Source: Candidatus Heimdallarchaeum aukensis
GTDB lineage: Archaea; Asgardarchaeota; Heimdallarchaeia; Heimdallarchaeales; Heimdallarchaeaceae
Direction of reading: 5' to 3'
DNA: 64,000 nucleotides
NCBI GenBank assembly: GCA_021513695.1
Contig: CP084166.1
Location: 1,440,001-1,504,000, forward strand
In this document: piece by piece, positions 5,914-29,250 of the stretch
Position numbering within the stretch: position 1 is the stretch's first letter
Layout of the letters: each line of letters opens with the position of its first letter
Notes under the pieces: generated by a model
Seen by the model: only the letters and a program-made list of their open reading frames with translations
Told to the model about the DNA's origin: nothing
The model's database searches: none
Program-made: the position numbers and the translations under genes

Positions 5914-6300
5914 GGTAGTGTCTAGTTTTTATACCACCTCCTAGGCAAAAAGGAATTAAGGGGTGGGTGTCCAAGGCTCTGGTGGGGGCGAATGAAGTTA
6001 TAATAAAGCATAAAGAGAGTAAGAAAACCAGAGAGATGATCGGAGCCATAAATAGCTCGAATAGAACAGGTACAGTGGAGAACAGAGTGAAACCAACGAT
6101 AGGTCTTAAGACTGGCATTAAAGCGCTCAACATATGACCGTATACCACCACTAACAACAAGATGATTAAGCCCGAGACGAGATAGATAGGATAGAATAGC
6201 AGGAACCAGCATCAGTGACGACGATACGTGGTTTTGAGGCCCAACAGCGGAACCAATAACGAAAAGTTAGTAAGCACTCGAGGACACTACTACCTTTACT
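5914..6300 (-). mobile_element. Truncated copy (left ~385 bp) of the IS6-family element found intact at 54324..55089
   Basis: Begins with the same terminal inverted repeat GGTAGTGTCTAGTTTTT (5914-5930). It is ~75% identical over ~380 bp to 54324-54712. It encodes the transposase C-terminus ('...ERFNASLKTY...YNFIRPHQSL...PRRWYKN*') on the minus strand. There is no right inverted repeat and no target-site duplication, so this is a solo or partial copy. Confidence 0.7.
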
Positions 6301-8873
6301 GTTTACTCTAATGGAACATATGTTATTTCAGTCTCTGATCTTACTGATTTTGGTAAATATCAGTTAGTAGTATTATTAACCTTAGATGGTTACGTTGATC
6401 AAAGCTTCACTCTGAACATTTTACTTTTAGAGAGAGAAACAACATTGAGTTCAACTACAGGAACTAGCCTACAGATTTACACAATTGATACCTTGAATCT
6501 ATTTTTAGAATACAAAGACAAAAATACTGATACAGCAATAGAAGCAGATGATAATCAAATTTCTTTTGCTCAAGGAACAGGAAATGAAACTTTAACCCTC
6601 AGTTTTTACTTTGAATCAATAAGTTACAATGGTTACACAGTCACTCTTCATTCTTTCACTTTTGACCCTAATGAAGCTACTGCAGCAGGATATGTATTTG
6701 TTTTCAACATTACACTTTCAAAATTTGGATATTCTAACAATTCAATTATAATCTATTTAAGAGTTGATATCAATCCTTCTGATATTCAGTGCCTAGAAGA
6801 TAGTATACTTATTGATTCTTCACAACAAGCATCTTTTACAATTTTCTATATTGATACAGTTTCTAATACAAACATTACTGGTGCGTTCATTAGCGTGTTA
6901 CAGTTAAATGGTTCTTCTTCTGATATCGATTCACTTTTAGCTTATAGTTCTACACCCTTTTACATTGTCTATATTGATCCTGATAATGTAAATGCTGTAG
7001 ATAAGACCTTTATGTTTAATGTTACACTCTATAAGGCGGGATATGAGAATCAATCTTACATTATTTACCTAACCGTAGTGTATAATCCCACCACAATTAG
7101 TGCAGAAGAAACAGAAAGTACCATTTTTGCGGATCAAGTCGCAGAATTTACACTGTATTATATAAATGATAAAACAGATACATATATAGAAGATGCTTCA
7201 GTAACCATTGAAATTGTCAATGGTTCAATGTATATAGAAGAATATTATGCTACAGGAACAAGTCCCTATATGTTTATATTAACCCTTATGATTAAAATTC
7301 CTCAGATTTAACTTTTGAAATAAGAATCACAATATCAAAAGGAGGATATAAAGAACAATCTATAGTACTTTATTTGCATGTAAAGATTCATCCTACAAGG
7401 ATATTCTCCTCTAGTAGCACTCAAACAATTTATGCAGATGAAACAGCAGATTTCACTGTTTATTACTGGGATACTTACAATGTTTTAATTGAAGAAGCAA
7501 ACCATACAGTAGAACTTACTCTTGGTGATTCAATAGATGTTGAAGGAGTAAGTTTGTTACATAACCAAGTTCTAGATGCTTACATTATCTCTTTTGATTT
7601 TAATGACTTTACAGTAACAAATGAAACATTTATTTTTAACATTACAATGTGGAAACCAGGATTCGAAAATCAATCAATAATACTAACGGTAAAAATCCAT
7701 GATTTCATTAGATATGAATTAAGCATAAACATCGATAGCGATACTATTCAACTTCTAAGTACAGTAACATTTACATTAATTCTAAAAGAAGCTATTATAC
7801 AGTTACTTGCTGATGATAATACAAAATTAGCTTATTCTCCTATTGGAGAAAATGTAACTTTAACTTTATTCCTTCTCGATAATGCTAATAATATCATTGA
7901 AACATCTACATTTAATATTACAATAAGTGATATTCAAAATGGTAATTATATTGGTCAATTCAAATATAGAGTTGAAAATTGGAAAGCTAAAAGCCTTAAA
8001 ATAGAGTGCACATATCTTCCTAAACAATCAAATATTGTTTCAACAACGAACTTCGATCTAACTTTTGAAATAAAGTTTCCATATTTCAATGATCTTTTCT
8101 ATGAATATCTATCTTACATGATTGCAGCAATTTCAATAATTGCCGTAGCAGCAATAACCTTGGCTGTTTATTTTGGAGTAGTTCGTCCCAAAAAACAAAG
8201 GCAACAAGCAAAAAGAAAACAATATTGTGATACTGTGTCAAATATACTTCAAAGCGTCACATCCATAAAGAAAGTTCTTGTTGTTCATAAAGATACTAGC
8301 TCTCCTGTTTATGAATTAGACTTAGGTTCAGATATGAGAGTAAGTTCAGCGCTTGTGACTGGATTTTTGCAAGCTGTATCCACAATGGCAAAAGAGATTA
8401 CAGGAAAAGATAAAGATGTTGTCAAAAAGTTAGATTACGGAGATTTAATTGTTACTTCTGCAGGCACAAAGAACTATATTACTTACATTTTCTCAGATAG
8501 AGAACTTTCAGAAGATATAACAAATGGTCTAAAAGAGTTCGTAAAATACTTTGAGAAAAGATTTTCTCATGTTGCAGAAAACTGGATTGGTTCCTTAGAT
8601 GAATTTAAAAAAGCAGAAAAGGCAATTTTGCGTAATTTAACAGAGCACTTATATATTTGGACATTATATCCTATAACTACTAATCCAACAATGGAAAAAG
8701 AAGTAAAGAAACTAGGTCCAATGAGCCAAAAAATAATTAAATTCGTTAAAGATACAAAAGAAGTAACAATAGGAATAATACTTCAATATTTCAACAGGTG
8801 GCCAAAAGAAGAAACTATTTCACTTGTCTTTGCTTTAGTTGAAGATCATTACCTTCTTACAAAGAGAATATAA
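6274..8873 (+). pseudogene. Disrupted large repeat-containing surface (S-layer/adhesin-like) protein with a C-terminal TM helix and a cytoplasmic roadblock/longin-like plus wHTH-like domain
   Basis: One gene in two frames (6274..7311 and 7296..8873). There are ~90-aa internal repeats, each ending with '...F(V/M/I)FN(I/V)TL.K.G(Y/F).N(Q/N)S.I(I/L)(Y/T)L.V', recurring at least five times with N-glycosylation-like N-x-S/T sites. The frameshift lies near 7285-7320 and is verified codon by codon. The N-terminus is missing: the frame opens right at the edge of the IS remnant at 6274, with no start codon or signal peptide. A TM segment 'IAAISIIAVAAITLAVYFGVVRPKKQRQ' is followed by a ~240-aa cytoplasmic domain. 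Confidence 0.6.
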
Positions 8874-8939
8874 CACTTTTTCTTTTTGTCTTTAATGTTA
8901 ACTTTATTAATTAACCTAATTCTCTTTTTTTAGATTATA

Positions 8940-9659
8940 ATGAAAAAATGGGAAGGATATGCGATCCTTTGCGATATGGATGGTGTCATTATAAGTATAA
9001 AAGAGAGATGGATAAACCCCTTTGAAAAAGCATTAAGAAAGGTTAAAGAAGATATAGATGAACATGCTCTGAGAGAACAAGCTCCATCTTTACTTCTAAC
9101 ACATGGAGGAAGAAGTAAAAAAATATGGTTAAGAGCAATTTTCAAGGTTTGTGGTTATGCGGGTTTGTCTAAATTTCAATCTTTTAGAGTGCTAATAAAT
9201 GTTGGTTTAATGCTTTTAAAACCTAAAAACTTTAAAATTGTTCCTTTTGATGGAGTTGAGGAAACTTTAGAAAAACTAAAAGGTTTAGGATTTAAACTTG
9301 CTTTAGTTACAACGGCTTCGAATTTTACCATAAGGAGGTTAAAAAAACTATATCCTGAAATTCATTCTAAGTATGACTTTATTTTCACGAGAAATGATGT
9401 AAAATTTACTAAACCCTTTCCAGACCAATTAAATTTAGCAATTGAGAAATTAAATGTTGATAGAGATAAGTGTGTTATGATTGGGGATTTGATGACTGAT
9501 ATTCTAGCTGGTAAAAATGCAGGAGTTAAAACTGTAGCTATCCTTAGTGAATACCCATTTATTACTGAAGCTCTTTTATCATCAGTAGAACCAGATCATA
9601 TGATAGAATCATTTTCTTTACTTCCAGAGTACCTAGATGACATTTTTACAAATAAATAG
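8940..9659 (+). CDS. HAD-superfamily (subfamily IA) hydrolase/phosphatase
   Basis: Motif I 'ILCDMDGVII' (DxDG), motif II 'LVTTAS', motif IV 'GDLMTDILAGKNAG'. An insertion between motifs I and II forms the cap. Confidence 0.7.
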   Translation: MKKWEGYAILCDMDGVIISIKERWINPFEKALRKVKEDIDEHALREQAPSLLLTHGGRSKKIWLRAIFKVCGYAGLSKFQSFRVLINVGLMLLKPKNFKIVPFDGVEETLEKLKGLGFKLALVTTASNFTIRRLKKLYPEIHSKYDFIFTRNDVKFTKPFPDQLNLAIEKLNVDRDKCVMIGDLMTDILAGKNAGVKTVAILSEYPFITEALLSSVEPDHMIESFSLLPEYLDDIFTNK

Positions 9660-9754
9660 CTAAATAGCTAAAATTTCTAATGCACTAATATATTTTTCCT
9701 AGTCTATCATAAGAAAAAGTTCAAAAACGCTATTAAAAACGCTAACATGTAAGA

Positions 9755-13604: not shown

Positions 13605-14534
13605 TCATTTCTCTTCTTTCTTTTTGTTTTCATTTTTTATAATTAACAAAATACGTTCCCATATAGAGTCTAGCAATGAGTGAATAACTCTTTGTTGATC
13701 TTGTGTTTCAATAATAGAGATTCGATGTCTATTTGCTTCTTCAACTAGATATCTCTGAATAGTTCGTATTTCCTCAAAAGCATTAATATATCGTTCTGCG
13801 TTTCTTTCTACAACTTTTAACCCCCTCCTCTTGAAACGTTCAAGATGCTCATGCTCATCTTTTAAGTGGAGAAGAAAAAGCATTACATGAGGTTGGGTTA
13901 TTGTTTCTGTTTTAAACAAGTTAGGAGATAAATGGACACCTTCAATAATTGTATTTTCTCTAGAATACATAGCCGATTCAATGATAGCCTCAACACCCAC
14001 AATGACTAATCTACTTTGTTCTTCAAACCCAACAATACTTCTATCTAAAATTGGGTTTATTTCAGGTTTTAAGTACTTATAAGCTTCATATGAGCTCCCA
14101 TATAACTCTGGGACTAGTTTTTTTGAAATACTTTGCCTTAATATCTCTCTTACCATATCAGTTCCAATAATATTTGTTATTTCTAGCCTTCGGGAGAGCA
14201 ATGAGGCAATTGTGCTTTTTCCTATTCCAGGCACTCCAGCTAATAAGATAATAATTGGTTTATATACTCCCTTTTGCTCAAAAGCAATGTATCTCTTAGC
14301 ATATAAAGGATTAAATTTTTCGAGATTATCAATAATTATCTGAGAAAAAGCTTCTTGAGAGAGTGTTTTGTCTGTTTTTCCTACTTGTAATTCGATTTGG
14401 GTTGCTAGTTCATAAGCATTAATTTCATCTAAGCCTATAGCATAAAAAGTACGAGAAAGAATACCCTTAGAAAAAATAGTTTTTCTTCCTGATTTTGTCC
14501 TAAATTTAATAAAGTTAGATGAAGGTTTACTCAT
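13605..14534 (-). CDS. 2-phosphoglycerate kinase family P-loop kinase (paralog 1)
   Basis: 'ILLAGVPGIGKSTIASLL...IIGTDMVREILR' matches the P-loop and downstream motif of archaeal 2-PGK (Methanothermus fervidus type). Confidence 0.7.
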   Translation of the reverse strand: MSKPSSNFIKFRTKSGRKTIFSKGILSRTFYAIGLDEINAYELATQIELQVGKTDKTLSQEAFSQIIIDNLEKFNPLYAKRYIAFEQKGVYKPIIILLAGVPGIGKSTIASLLSRRLEITNIIGTDMVREILRQSISKKLVPELYGSSYEAYKYLKPEINPILDRSIVGFEEQSRLVIVGVEAIIESAMYSRENTIIEGVHLSPNLFKTETITQPHVMLFLLHLKDEHEHLERFKRRGLKVVERNAERYINAFEEIRTIQRYLVEEANRHRISIIETQDQQRVIHSLLDSIWERILLIIKNENKKKEEK

Positions 14535-14677: not shown

Positions 14678-15568
14678 ATGAACTTTGAATCCCCAATATA
14701 CGTGAAGAGAGAGCAAGCAAGTTATTTATTTAGCAGAGGGATTCTGGCTACAAGACTAGAGGTTATAGGTCTTGAGTTTCAACAAGCTTATGAATTATCT
14801 AACAAGATATATCTAAAAATCAAAAAATTATCTGAAAATACAATATCCAAGAATAAATTAGATGAATTTGTTTATGATTCAATTAAAGAAAAATATTCTG
14901 AAAAACTAGCTGAAGAATACTTAACAATCGAAAAATTAAGAGATACAAATATACCTTTGTGGATTGTTATTGCAGGAGCTATTGGAGTGGGAAAAAGTAC
15001 ATTATCAAGGAAAATCGCTTCAGACTTTGGGATTAGGCATGTAATTGGAACAGACATAGTAAGAGATATTTTAAGAAAAACACTATCTAAAGATATTGCT
15101 CCACAGCTGCATTCTCCTTCATATTTAGCTTATAAAACATTAAGACCAATTTATAGTACACGTTACGATGAAGTGATTATTGGTTATGAAAATCATTCAA
15201 AATATGTTAATATTGGAATCGAAGCTCTGTTAAATAGAGCTGCAATGGAAAACATTTCAATAATTATTGAAGGAGAACATTTACTGCCTTCTTTTTTTGA
15301 CAAAGAAACAATAAAAATTTCAAATTTAATCTACATCACTATCTCTTTAGAAAATGAAAAGATGCATTTAGAAAATTTAAGTTCACAGTATTCTAGAGAA
15401 AAAGAAGAGCTAATTAAAAACTTTAAAAATATTCGGAAAATTCATGATTTCCTTGTCCACGAAACAAAAATCAGAAAGTTACCTGTTATCGAAGCTAAAG
15501 ATAAAGATGTGGTACTTGCAAATGTGAGAAAATATATTATTGAAAAAGCTAAAAAGATAGTTTTCTGA
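14678..15568 (+). CDS. 2-phosphoglycerate kinase family P-loop kinase (paralog 2)
   Basis: 'IVIAGAIGVGKSTLSRKIA...VIGTDIVRDILR' parallels paralog 1 along the whole length. Divergently transcribed from it. Confidence 0.7.
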   Translation: MNFESPIYVKREQASYLFSRGILATRLEVIGLEFQQAYELSNKIYLKIKKLSENTISKNKLDEFVYDSIKEKYSEKLAEEYLTIEKLRDTNIPLWIVIAGAIGVGKSTLSRKIASDFGIRHVIGTDIVRDILRKTLSKDIAPQLHSPSYLAYKTLRPIYSTRYDEVIIGYENHSKYVNIGIEALLNRAAMENISIIIEGEHLLPSFFDKETIKISNLIYITISLENEKMHLENLSSQYSREKEELIKNFKNIRKIHDFLVHETKIRKLPVIEAKDKDVVLANVRKYIIEKAKKIVF

Positions 15569-17545: not shown

Positions 17546-17998
17546 ATGCACAAGGGGTTTATAACTAAAGAATTAACCAATGATGAAATAAGTCACAAAA
17601 AAATATTCATTAAAGTAGAAGACAGAATTTTGTTTCCTCATGGTATTTTTTTTATTGACTACCTAGACAATTCCTTTGGAGTTTATTTATCCAATAGAGG
17701 ATTTTTAGAAGGATTAGAATCATGGTTTGAAGAATTTCCTTCTTTAAAGAAGGGAGACATTGTTATTATCGCTAAACATAGCTCGGGCTTTTCTTTGAAC
17801 ACAACCTCACCAGTTGTTCAGTCTCAGATTTCTTTGATAATGGAAATGCAAAGAGTACAAATGTTGACTGAAGAGGATATTCTATGTCCAAACTGTTACT
17901 ACTCCTTAGAAAAAGAAAAACTCCCTGAAGATTCTCCTCACTTATTAAAATTAAAATGTGGGCGTTGTGGATTTATTCTTATAAAAACCAAAATTTAA
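17546..17998 (+). CDS. B3-like (DNA-binding pseudobarrel-like) domain protein with C-terminal C4 zinc ribbon, tandem paralog A
   Basis: 150 aa. 'MHKGFITKELTNDEISHKKIFI...RILFP...GFLEGLESWF...GDIVIIAK' (B3/EcoRII-N-like pattern F.K.LT...WF...GD.v.i), then 'CPNCYYSLEKE...CGRCGF'. Confidence 0.45.
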   Translation: MHKGFITKELTNDEISHKKIFIKVEDRILFPHGIFFIDYLDNSFGVYLSNRGFLEGLESWFEEFPSLKKGDIVIIAKHSSGFSLNTTSPVVQSQISLIMEMQRVQMLTEEDILCPNCYYSLEKEKLPEDSPHLLKLKCGRCGFILIKTKI

Positions 17999-18062: not shown

Positions 18063-18530
18063 ATGCATGTTGGATTTATCATCCGAGAATTAACCGAGGA
18101 AGAGATTAACCATAAGTGCTTATATGTTTTTGAAAAAGACAGAATACTTTTTCCTAATACAGGAGTTTTATTTTTTGTTGAATCCTATGAAGAGACATAT
18201 GGAGTAAGAATAGATCAAGATGGATTTCTTAGAGGATTAGAAACATGGTTTACAAAATATCCTCATAATCCTGGCGATACGATAATCATCGCAAAAACTT
18301 CTGAAAGTTTTTCTTTAAGTAGTTCTTCTGAGCTCATTCAACAAATTATTGGAGAATCATATGAAAAAGTTCGTGTTGATGAAATGGATGAGAAATCAGA
18401 AGCATGTCCAAATTGTCAATATCAACTAGAAATGGCAGCTAAAAAAGAAGAACGAATCATTTTCAAGTGTGCACGTTGTGGATTTACAATGGTTAGAAAA
18501 ATAAAAGATAATGAAAATGAAGAAGATTAA
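18063..18530 (+). CDS. B3-like domain protein with C-terminal C4 zinc ribbon, tandem paralog B
   Basis: 155 aa. 'MHVGFIIRELTEEEINHK...RILFP...GFLRGLETWF...GDTIIIAK...CPNCQYQLE...CARCGF'. Collinear with paralog A at roughly 45% identity. Confidence 0.45.
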   Translation: MHVGFIIRELTEEEINHKCLYVFEKDRILFPNTGVLFFVESYEETYGVRIDQDGFLRGLETWFTKYPHNPGDTIIIAKTSESFSLSSSSELIQQIIGESYEKVRVDEMDEKSEACPNCQYQLEMAAKKEERIIFKCARCGFTMVRKIKDNENEED

Positions 18531-19238: not shown

Positions 19239-19865
19239 ATGATGGAGGAAATGATACACAATATTTGGATTGCTAAGGATACTGGTGAATGTCTATATCA
19301 TAGAAGATTTAATGATGACATCAACATAGATGAGAATTTAATAACCAGCTTTCTCTCTGCAATTGAAATTTTTGCTCAAAATGTCGATTCTGGCTGTGAA
19401 CAGCTTGAAACAAAAAGGTACAAATTCATCTATGCACAAACAGATAACACTGTCACAGTTGCTTGTATTGACAAAAATGATGATGATACCTATATCAAGA
19501 AAGAAGTAGAAGCAATTCAAAATGAGTTTAAATCCCGTTTCAGTAAAATGTTAGAAAATTGGAATGGAAGAGTAGAGTTATTTAGTACAATGGATGAATT
19601 CGTCGATAAAAGATTATCTTCCTTTAATTCCATTCTTGGTTCGTTTAAGAATAAAAAACTGGAGCTGAATGAGATGATTATTAAGCAAAAACCTAAATTA
19701 AAACTCAGTCCTCAGCAAGAGAAAGTCATATCACTGATCAGATATAAAGGGACAGCCACGTTACAGGACATTTGTAAATGGATGAAATTAACTGAGCCAG
19801 ATGCAGAAATAGCTGCAAAGAGCCTTTTACACAATAATATTATACGTGAGGTTACAGGCGCTTAA
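19239..19865 (+). CDS. Soluble roadblock/longin-like domain protein with C-terminal winged-helix (paralog of the cytoplasmic tail of the 6274..8873 surface protein)
   Basis: 'IWIAKDTGECLY', 'ITSFLSAIEIFAQNV' and '...FKSRFSKMLENWNGRVELFSTMDEF' align with 'VLVVHKDTSSPVY', 'VTGFLQAVSTMAKEI' and '...FEKRFSHVAENWIGSLDEF' of the 7296..8873 segment. The C-terminal 'ISLIRYKGTATLQDICKWMKL...' is wHTH-like. The fold assignment is tentative. Confidence 0.45.
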   Translation: MMEEMIHNIWIAKDTGECLYHRRFNDDINIDENLITSFLSAIEIFAQNVDSGCEQLETKRYKFIYAQTDNTVTVACIDKNDDDTYIKKEVEAIQNEFKSRFSKMLENWNGRVELFSTMDEFVDKRLSSFNSILGSFKNKKLELNEMIIKQKPKLKLSPQQEKVISLIRYKGTATLQDICKWMKLTEPDAEIAAKSLLHNNIIREVTGA

Positions 19866-24266: not shown

Positions 24267-24932
24267 ATGGTCGCTAAAGATCAACTTGATAAGGAAGATA
24301 GAATAAAAAAGGGAGTAGAAGAGATTCTAAGCTTCAGAGGATATGAAATTAAAAAAATAAATACAGATGATGATTATATTGATTTTTACGCTGAAAAAAC
24401 TGATGAAGACGGAGAAGAAACAAATTTAATTGTCAGATTTCCTAGAAAAGCGAGCATAGGAGTAAAAACAATAAGAGAACTTGATCAATATAGAAAAGAT
24501 GAAGATATTCAAGATGCAATAATTATAGCAGAAGGAGCTTTAACTCACTATGCAAAAAGAGAATGTTTAGAACGAGGAGTGGAAATAATAAGTGGAACAA
24601 ATCCCCTTTTTAATATCTTTGATCACATAATGGTTCCACTTCATATAAAACTTGAAGATGATGAAGTTGAAGAAGTTTTAAAGAAATATCAAATAAAGAA
24701 GCATCAATTGCCAAAGATCCTAGACTCAGACCCTGCGATTAAAGCTATTCAAGCAAACCCAGGAGATATAATAAAGATAATTAGAAACCCAAACATGGGA
24801 GAAGCAGGAGTATATTATCGATATGTTATCAGATCTACATCAAGATTAAGGCTAGCAGCAAAAACTCAACGCTCCTCTTTAGAAGAAGAAGTTGTAGAAG
24901 ACATAGAAGAAGATATAGAAGAAGAACTTTAG
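24267..24932 (+). CDS. rpoH: DNA-directed RNA polymerase subunit H (Rpb5 homolog), full-length eukaryote-like form with N-terminal Rpb5 'jaw' domain
   Basis: C-terminal 'LKKYQIKKHQLPKILDSDPAIKAIQANPGDIIKIIRNPNMGEAGVYYRYVI' is canonical RpoH/Rpb5-C. The N-terminal ~130 aa align with the eukaryotic Rpb5 N-domain (memory comparison with human RPB5). Acidic tail 'EEEVVEDIEEDIEEEL'. Confidence 0.8.
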   Translation: MVAKDQLDKEDRIKKGVEEILSFRGYEIKKINTDDDYIDFYAEKTDEDGEETNLIVRFPRKASIGVKTIRELDQYRKDEDIQDAIIIAEGALTHYAKRECLERGVEIISGTNPLFNIFDHIMVPLHIKLEDDEVEEVLKKYQIKKHQLPKILDSDPAIKAIQANPGDIIKIIRNPNMGEAGVYYRYVIRSTSRLRLAAKTQRSSLEEEVVEDIEEDIEEEL

Positions 24933-28635: not shown

Positions 28636-29250
28636 TTGTCTTGGAAAACTTGGTTAAAAAGTAAACCCAAACATATTAAACTTGGATTTTATGGGGAAGT
28701 AAATGCCGGGAAGACAACGTTAGCAAATGTTATGGGGATGGATTGGGCAGGACAAGAAGTGGGAAAAGTTTCTGAAATCCCTCACGAAACTAGAGAAATT
28801 GCAAAACTAGAAAAAGTTGATTTTAATGTGGATGGGACAAAAATAGATTTAACTTTAATAGATATGCCAGGTATAGCTACAACAGTTGACCCAAAATCAT
28901 TTGTTAATTATGGATTAAGTGCTGGAGAAGCTATGCAAAGAGCTAAAGAAGCAACAAGAGGAATAGTAGAAGCTATCAAGTATTTAGAGCAAGTTGATGT
29001 TGCACTTGTAGTATTAGATTCTACAAAAACACCATTTGATCAAGTTAATTTTACTATTCTTGGGAACTTAGAACATCAGAAGAAGCCATTTATTATTGTC
29101 CCAAACAAAATAGATTGCCCTGAATCAGATGTAAAAACAGTGCAAGAAGCCTTTGGTGATTATGAAGTTGTACCTATCTCTGCCTTGAAGAAGGAAGGTA
29201 TTGACAAACTCTATGATAGTATTGCAAAATTAGCTAAAAAGGTGAAATAA
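28636..29250 (+). CDS. Small standalone GTPase (Era/EngB-like MMR_HSR1-type G domain)
   Basis: G1 'GEVNAGKTTL', G3 'DMPG', G4 'NKID'. Not Ras-like (no DTAGQE). TTG start per the ORF track. Confidence 0.6.
   Translation: MSWKTWLKSKPKHIKLGFYGEVNAGKTTLANVMGMDWAGQEVGKVSEIPHETREIAKLEKVDFNVDGTKIDLTLIDMPGIATTVDPKSFVNYGLSAGEAMQRAKEATRGIVEAIKYLEQVDVALVVLDSTKTPFDQVNFTILGNLEHQKKPFIIVPNKIDCPESDVKTVQEAFGDYEVVPISALKKEGIDKLYDSIAKLAKKVK

Follow-up and report, generated by a model that had tools for sequence, protein, structure and literature searches.

The locus described here raises the question whether the cytoplasmic end of a surface protein and a separate small protein are versions of the same domain module, and what such a module might do both beneath the membrane and free in the cell. 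It lies in a window of 64,000 nucleotides, the whole stretch of DNA analysed in this study, from Candidatus Heimdallarchaeum aukensis (contig CP084166.1, positions 1,440,001 to 1,504,000; G+C content of the window 31.5%). The open reading frame (ORF) 7374..8873 on the plus strand, of 499 amino acids (aa), carries the tethered form of the module at its C-terminal end, behind a transmembrane helix. The ORF 19239..19865, also on the plus strand, encodes 208 aa without a transmembrane segment and represents the free form. Our results leave very little doubt that the tail of the first protein and the 208-aa protein stem from the same evolutionary module, made up of a longin domain with a short winged helix behind it. 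Homologs of the window genes belong to metagenome-assembled genomes (MAGs) of Heimdallarchaeaceae, and the nearest complete genome is that of Ca. Heimdallarchaeum endolithica PR6 (CP084167.1), with 86% nucleotide identity to window positions 6288..9700.

In a composition-adjusted BLASTP comparison, the tail aligned with the protein at 19239..19865 over 182 aa (E=2e-9, 23% identity), and the alignment extends through the C-terminal domain. It pairs the motifs VHKDTSSPVY with IAKDTGECLY, VTGFLQAVS with ITSFLSAIE and FEKRFSHVAENWIGS with FKSRFSKMLENWNGR. When all 85 window ORFs with 80 aa or more were compared by phmmer, the tail and the soluble protein were each other's sole match (E=3e-10 and 2e-9), the next-best match of either having an E-value of 0.07. 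The alignments of the soluble family (60 sequences) and of the tethered family (17 sequences) were compared by hhalign, which gave a probability of 96.7% and E=3.9e-10 over 169 aligned columns. A preliminary description of this DNA had proposed the kinship of the segment 8200..8873 with the 208-aa protein and had quoted the same motif pairs; both are borne out by these comparisons. It had also named an insignificant profile-profile alignment as grounds for dropping the claim, and since the hhalign result is significant, this did not occur. One may still ask whether the similarity arose by chance or from the composition of an AT-rich genome, without a common fold, as the identity is low and all curated family models stay below threshold on both proteins. 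However, the BLASTP value already includes the composition adjustment, hhalign agrees with it, separate AlphaFold models yield the same two folds, and a single profile retrieves both subfamilies among 1513 clusters. The probability of a chance similarity is therefore negligible, and we regard it as ruled out by BLASTP, hhalign and the concordant models.

Both regions were modelled with AlphaFold, and in both a longin-type domain is followed by a winged-helix-like domain, as the preliminary description had expected of a shared fold. The model of the soluble protein (mean predicted local distance difference test, pLDDT, 79) shows the order beta-beta-alpha-beta-beta-alpha-alpha in its first domain, a linker, and strand-helix-helix-helix-strand in its second (residues in Table 1). 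The model of the tail, in which the transmembrane helix was included (mean pLDDT 82, predicted template modelling score 0.72), shows beta-beta-alpha-beta-beta-beta-alpha-alpha, with strands at 59-66, 72-77, 112-116, 119-125 and 129-135 and helices at 86-104, 141-163 and 170-186, after which comes a compact domain of helices flanked by short strands. A longin domain is defined by a five-stranded antiparallel sheet and by the lack of an N-terminal helix within the domain, and the models agree with this definition as well as with solved longin domain structures; strands and helices of the soluble model come in the same order as in the tail, but only four strands are assigned by DSSP. Judged from these models, the first domain is a longin, and a roadblock fits less well. 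Of the roadblock/longin-like fold proposed earlier, the longin part is upheld by the order of strands and helices, whereas a roadblock as primary fold of the soluble protein was rejected, as the N-terminal helix with which the roadblock order alpha-beta-beta-alpha-beta-beta-beta begins is absent there.

The curated sequence families give a fainter picture. The Pfam models Longin (PF13774), Sybindin (PF04099), Clat_adaptor_s (PF01217) and Fuz_longin_1 (PF19036) match the window proteins only below threshold, at E=0.04-0.15. Orthologs match Pfam longin models repeatedly and always below threshold (Clat_adaptor_s in 29 of 60), and Roadblock/LC7 (PF03259) reaches 12.5-14 bits, short of its cut-off of 23. 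In a Foldseek search with the tail model, MglB/roadblock chains ranked at the top (E=4e-5). This preference is probably due to the juxtamembrane helix, which sits where the N-terminal helix of a roadblock lies; given the ranking, the modelled fold of the tail on its own appears less clear-cut. The uncharacterised Pfam family DUF7198 was matched by the tail construct at E=5e-4 (20 bits, below the cut-off of 27) and was seen in 1 of the 17 members of the tethered family; this match covers the transmembrane helix and the first half of the longin.

The C-terminal domain of both models is a three-helix, short-strand, winged-helix-like fold, which in the tail reads strand-helix-helix-helix-helix-strand with a pLDDT of about 90. 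HTH_9 was matched by 49 of the 60 orthologs and MarR by 14 (best E=5.6e-4), all below threshold. A winged-helix profile of both families, compared with the PDB, found Sul7s (E=0.004), the winged helix of DDRGK1, MarR, Z-alpha and Lrp-type helix-turn-helix (HTH) chains, with E-values ranging from 0.004 to 0.6. About eight residues follow helix 3, so that this is a short winged helix in which the full beta-hairpin wing is absent. The domain is thus predicted to behave as a winged helix, and the earlier statement that both proteins end in a winged HTH-like segment holds on the models, the sub-threshold HTH_9 and MarR matches and the PDB profile matches.

The closest known architecture is that of NPRL2/NPRL3 (Npr2/Npr3 in yeast), which belong to the Rag GTPase-activating complex GATOR1/SEACIT. 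They combine a longin with C-terminal winged HTH repeats and provide a eukaryotic precedent (PMC3747258), and the order longin, then winged HTH, is seen in both of our models. With Foldseek, the tail model was aligned to yeast Npr2 (8adl_S) over 260 columns and to a GATOR1 subunit (chain C) over 281-290 columns. However, NPRL2/NPRL3 possess two or more winged helices, whereas the window proteins have one short winged helix and no TINI or other intervening domain. NPRL2/NPRL3 are soluble and peripheral and never lie behind a transmembrane helix and an ectodomain, in contrast to the tethered form, which is membrane-integral. The loop between strands 1 and 2 reads DTGEC in the soluble protein and DTSSP or ETGLP in the tail, none of which is a clear GP motif such as accompanies the catalytic arginine finger. 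The Pfam models NPR2 and NPR3 found no match at E<=1 in the window proteins or at E<=0.5 in 77 family members. More distant are the longins of R-SNAREs, of TRAPP (sedlin, synbindin, Bet5) and of adaptor sigma/mu subunits, which share 8-16% sequence identity with the module. The R-SNARE longins (Sec22b, VAMP7, Ykt6) are followed by a SNARE motif and a C-terminal anchor, whereas in the module a winged helix follows the longin and the anchor is N-terminal. A longin SNARE was rejected accordingly: neither model contains a SNARE motif or a coiled coil, and the transmembrane helix is on the N-terminal side. MglB and Roadblock/LC7 (PF03259) have a related alpha/beta sandwich and serve as a GTPase platform.

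How the module is presented to the cell can be read best from intact homologs of the tethered protein. Three of them (P0067, P0075 and P0104) have signal-peptide-like N-termini and one transmembrane helix 25-50 aa before the module, and in tethered proteins N-x-S/T sequons are 3-10-fold denser before the transmembrane helix than after it. By sequence, these homologs fit a type-I single-pass surface protein with the longin and winged helix in the cytoplasm. In the window, N-glycosylation sequons number 2.4 per 100 aa in the ectodomain part 7296..8108 against 0.4 in the tail. The repeats of the ectodomain carry the motif F.FN.T..K.GY.NQS (frame translation of 6286..7269), and Pfam and PDB sequence searches with the ectodomain gave no match. 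In the AlphaFold model of the tail, the membrane segment and the basic juxtamembrane stretch form one unbroken helix; the juxtamembrane stretch has a mean net charge of +7.6 across the tethered family and a motif V/I-R-P-K/R-K conserved among homologs. Since a transmembrane helix lies directly upstream, at 8109..8183, the segment 8200..8873 is a post-transmembrane cytoplasmic tail. To this extent the earlier reading as the C-terminus of a surface protein is right; the ORF, however, is not intact, as its TTG start falls inside a repeat and the sequence upstream of it is truncated and interrupted.

A combined profile of tail and soluble sequences was searched against 1.84 billion cluster representatives (clusters at 50% identity); 1513 clusters passed E<=1e-3, and 232 of these passed E<=1e-10. 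The module thus belongs to a large longin family of Asgard type that Pfam and NCBIfam do not contain, with the signature G.CL...LISGFLSA...F..(R)F.....W.G....F. A word-indexed search with the tail alone had returned one partial protein, which, given the many close relatives in the exhaustive profile search, reflects a limit of sensitivity and not an absence of relatives. A word-indexed search with a 40-sequence longin alignment gave the soluble orthologs again and no wider taxonomy. Architectures were counted in the best 149 representatives of the 1513 clusters. A transmembrane helix at most 90 aa upstream of the module is present in 41 of the 149 (14 with the winged helix matched, 18 with a longer C-terminal extension), and in 97 the module is N-terminal and the protein soluble (20 with winged helix). 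The tethered relatives typically have 1000-2900 aa. The subfamily of the tail (P0067, P0075, P0076, P0089, P0104 and others) scored 200-318 bits and was located in 28 genome loci, nearly all labelled Heimdallarchaeota. In a second tethered subfamily (P0138, P0142, P0157, P0189, P0209 and others), the transmembrane helix is followed by a V-P-K-K motif, the longin, an invariant NTSIILPH, a divergent winged-helix-like segment and an additional 280-600 aa of lysine/glutamate-rich helical repeats (K..A....Y..A...Y..A..IA..W.L). Among the relatives, P0111 and P0127 score above the Pfam thresholds of eukaryotic longin families, the former for Fuz_longin_1 and the latter for Clat_adaptor_s. In soluble relatives the longin is fused to Arf/Ras/Roc GTPase domains (P0151, P0085, P0113, P0129), to the TRAPPC3-related V4R domain (P0184), to TrmB/HTH_47-type winged-helix repeats that follow the longin (P0106), or to a prenyltransferase alpha-alpha toroid (P0088, 425 aa; PF00432, E=5e-30). 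The last of these fusions stands out against the listing of the protein prenylation machinery as absent from Lokiarchaeum (PMC4917890, Table 1).

The role that we consider most probable for the module is that of a dimerising platform for small GTPases, which would work either free in the cell or held beneath a surface protein; this proposal is about equally likely to be right or wrong. In the tethered form, the module sits on a rigid basic helix that continues, without a break, the one transmembrane helix of a type-I surface protein; in intact relatives this protein has a signal-peptide-like N-terminus and a glycosylation-rich repeat ectodomain of 1000-2900 aa. In the free form the module makes up the whole protein. 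The longin would dimerise with itself, or as a heterodimer of tethered and free forms, and the dimer would bind or regulate a small Arf/Rab/Rag-like GTPase, with the winged helix as a second contact to protein or nucleic acid. Tethering would hold the platform on the cytoplasmic side of the membrane, below the surface protein, and an activity of the ectodomain (adhesion, contact or clustering) could in this way be coupled to GTPase-controlled events inside the cell. The tail might then serve as the output of an outside-in transmembrane sensor, a role that the preliminary description had already suggested. Our analysis shows the homology, both folds, the signals of membrane topology, the size of the family and its fusions; dimerisation, GTPase binding and any signalling we infer by analogy, because longin/roadblock dimers are platforms for small GTPases in every well-studied case, namely MglB, SRX-SRbeta, TRAPP, Mon1-Ccz1, DENN, FLCN/FNIP and NPRL2/3 (PMC3747258). 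A partnership of this longin clade with small GTPases is supported mainly by the fusions to GTPase, V4R, prenyltransferase and winged-helix domains. The link to small GTPases that had been expected for the locus is thus found in domain fusions of the relatives and not in the gene neighbourhood.

A number of observations weigh against the platform proposal. In Pfam and NCBIfam, both window proteins stay below the threshold of every model, and the Foldseek comparisons with Npr2 and GATOR1 gave low template modelling (TM) scores of 0.24-0.34. No GTPase, roadblock or longin partner gene adjoins either gene, here or at four related loci, and no conserved operon partners were found at the window or at related loci. 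Asgard GTPase and longin/roadblock genes have been noted to lie generally outside operons (PMC10933270), with which a neighbourhood free of GTPase genes is consistent. The winged helix of the soluble family has a charge compatible with DNA binding, and the tethered gene is damaged in the two nearest genomes. The last two points are taken up in turn.

In the soluble family the winged helix is basic, with a net charge of +3.3 and a mean pI of 9.4. This would suit a one-component transcription regulator, in which the winged helix binds DNA and the longin is the sensor or ligand part, the tethered form being a membrane-bound regulator, ToxR/CadC-like or released by proteolysis, that would report on the ectodomain. 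The free form would then act as a conventional regulator in the cytoplasm. The winged-helix repeats of P0106 would fit such a protein, as would the profile matches to Sul7s, MarR and Lrp-type HTH chains and the MarR, DeoR and HTH_9 matches that recur in orthologs, although all of the latter stay under the family thresholds. However, the putative recognition helix begins with acidic residues in both forms (EPDAEIAAK in the soluble protein, KEETISLVFALVED in the tail), the few residues past helix 3 leave the wing incomplete, and the winged helix of the tail family is near neutral (net charge -5 to +6). In addition, the longin family is fused repeatedly to GTPases and not to classical sensor outputs. 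We therefore consider a transcription regulator unlikely.

The structural features of the tethered proteins could also be explained if the longin and winged helix were a structural or sorting tail, which anchors a giant surface protein to a cytoskeletal, ESCRT or coat-like scaffold without a GTPase switch, with the free paralog as competitor or adaptor. Longin-fold sigma/mu subunits form the core of eukaryotic cargo adaptors, and the Clat_adaptor_s matches (sub-threshold in 29 of 60 orthologs, above threshold in P0127) point in this direction, as do the rigid helix that joins the transmembrane helix to the longin and the 280-600 aa of helical repeats in the second subfamily, which suggest binding to a scaffold. 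On the other hand, no genes for adaptor large subunits or coats were seen beside tethered or soluble genes, and the GTPase fusions within the family favour a coupling to GTPases. A sorting tail thus seems quite improbable to us.

As to the damage, the tethered copy in the window shows a TAA stop and a deletion of 1 nt and is truncated at its 5' end. In a tblastn search with the intact homolog P0067 (1760 aa), only aa 1105-1760 found a match in the window, spread over two frames, and the N-terminal ~1100 codons of the intact homolog are missing. Compared with PR6 by blastn, the deletion, between 7269 and 7270, shifts frame 1 to frame 3, and the in-frame TAA at 7293..7295 stands where PR6 has TCA. 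Homology to the PR6 ortholog ends at window position 6288, beside the fragment of an rve_3 gene on the minus strand at 5925..6212, and the mechanically assigned TTG start at 7374 lies within an ectodomain repeat. Taken with the truncation and the lesions, the rve_3 fragment resembles a truncation associated with an insertion sequence and followed by recent decay, or assembly errors. PR6, the closest complete genome, carries a TGA at the family-invariant Trp codon of its ortholog (locus L003, 3361..3363; VAEN*IGS), where the window has TGG (8583..8585) and a third, partial sequence (P0064) retains Trp. In the two nearest genomes, the tethered gene was hence damaged independently and by different lesions. 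With these lesions, the tethered gene may possibly be dispensable in this lineage.

Between the window and PR6, the ratio of nonsynonymous to synonymous substitutions (dN/dS) is 0.053 in the tail, 0.11-0.12 in the ectodomain and 0.077 in a neighbouring HAD gene, with dS from 0.45 to 0.94 across these regions. Such low values mean that purifying selection acted over nearly all of the divergence, and hence that the lesions are very recent or are sequence errors. From the sequence, the tethered gene of the window is probably a very recent pseudogene or is affected by sequence errors. The gene of the free form is undamaged, and its conservation is high, at 55-96% identity among 63 orthologs. Linkage between the tethered and the soluble gene is loose, with a distance of 10 kb in the window, 5 kb in GCA_054001415 and about 22 kb in JAUVXV010000001. 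Both the selection on the tail and this linkage speak for the platform proposal. The features of both are collected in Table 1.

Table 1. Coordinates of the tethered and soluble longin/winged-helix genes and of adjoining features in the window
Feature	Coordinates	Strand	Evidence or remark
Transposase remnant (integrase core, rve_3 fragment)	5925..6212	-	Pfam rve_3, E=6.7e-5, below cut-off, part of the domain
Ectodomain repeats, frame 1, 5'-truncated	6286..7269	+	Match to aa 1105 to ~1369 of intact 1760-aa homolog
Two lesions (1-nt deletion 7269/7270; TAA 7293..7295)	7269..7295	+	blastn against PR6 locus L003
Rest of ectodomain, frame 3	7296..8108	+	Frame translation; listed TTG start 7374 within a repeat
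Single transmembrane helix, ~aa 246-270	8109..8183	+	Hydropathy, sequence, continuous helix in AlphaFold model
Basic juxtamembrane helix, RPKKQRQQAKRKQ...	8184..8264	+	AlphaFold helix 2-58 of the 260-aa construct; runs from transmembrane helix to longin strand 1
Longin domain of the tail, aa 298-425 (predicted)	8265..8648	+	Includes family-invariant Trp404 (8583..8585), ENWxG motif
Winged-helix-like domain of the tail, aa 434-496	8673..8861	+	AlphaFold, alignment to soluble C-terminal domain, PDB profile matches
Soluble paralog, 208 aa: predicted longin aa 6-130 (19254..19628), winged helix aa 141-204 (19659..19850)	19239..19865	+	
Trp108 of the soluble paralog	19560..19562	+	

Some further genes in the surroundings may be mentioned. 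An MMR_HSR1 GTPase at 28636..29250 was dismissed as a partner of the module, as it is of translation type, lies 9 kb off and is syntenic for reasons that have nothing to do with it. In one Heimdall MAG, some 6 kb separate an Arf/Gtr1_RagA-type GTPase of 407 aa (locus L001, 12591.., JAUVXV010000001.1) from the soluble ortholog, and in another MAG a Robl_LC7 gene (locus L032, 18120..18482) is found 4.5 kb from a tethered homolog; neither arrangement is conserved. The ORF 24267..24932 on the plus strand encodes an RNA polymerase subunit with an Rpb5 C-terminal domain (E=9e-26). Its N-terminal part matches Mrr_cat/restriction-endonuclease-like domains (E=1.6e-8) and, below threshold, Rpb5_N, and the protein resembles the eukaryote-style two-domain Rpb5 more than the short archaeal RpoH. 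Two tandem paralogs on the plus strand, 17546..17998 and 18063..18530 (150 and 155 aa), both start with MH.GFI..ELT..EI.HK and have no Pfam match, and the second has a zinc-ribbon-like CxxC...CxxC motif at its end. The divergent genes 13605..14534 (minus strand) and 14678..15568 (plus strand) have similar N-termini, ...FSKGILSRTFYAIGLDEINAYELATQIELQ and ...FSRGILATRLEVIGLEFQQAYELSNKIYLKIKK, and the block that holds them is missing between PheRS and the soluble longin gene in one related genome.

Expansions of longins in Asgard archaea, longin-GTPase fusions and broad domain shuffling are established. In the parts of the literature available to us, the Asgard longin and roadblock proteins (the Lokiarchaeota Roadblock-Longin 8yqg, longin-GTPase fusions and the eukaryotic signature proteins of the asCOG 'Roadblock/LC7 superfamily') are described as soluble or as fusions with GTPase, two-component or TRAPPC3 domains. 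In the same parts, which include text of the asCOG preprint, no single-pass surface protein with a cytoplasmic longin/winged-helix tail is described; the asCOG catalogue may contain the family under the generic label 'Roadblock/LC7 superfamily'. A commentary has pointed out that longins alone do not imply trafficking and can act without membrane association (PMC4917890). Asgard genomes are rich in genes for longins, roadblocks and small GTPases, which so far had no tie to membranes. About a quarter of the best-matching representatives in our search are built into single-pass surface proteins, and this gives a concrete handle on the question of longins and membranes. The architecture of the module is the closest prokaryotic parallel to the longin and winged-helix layout of NPRL2/NPRL3, and for annotation more than 1500 clusters of 'hypothetical proteins' are joined in one defined domain family.

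A wider reading, which we regard as doubtful, is that the tethered proteins form a class of single-pass receptor-adaptors widespread in Asgard archaea, with a giant ectodomain, a rigid helix, a cytoplasmic longin platform and free longin/winged-helix proteins as heterodimer partners, which would recruit or switch Arf/Rab/Rag-like GTPases at the plasma membrane. If true, such a class would be a prokaryotic forerunner of SR-alpha/beta, of Ragulator or of cargo-adaptor coupling, and it would provide the first direct genomic link of Asgard longins to the membrane.

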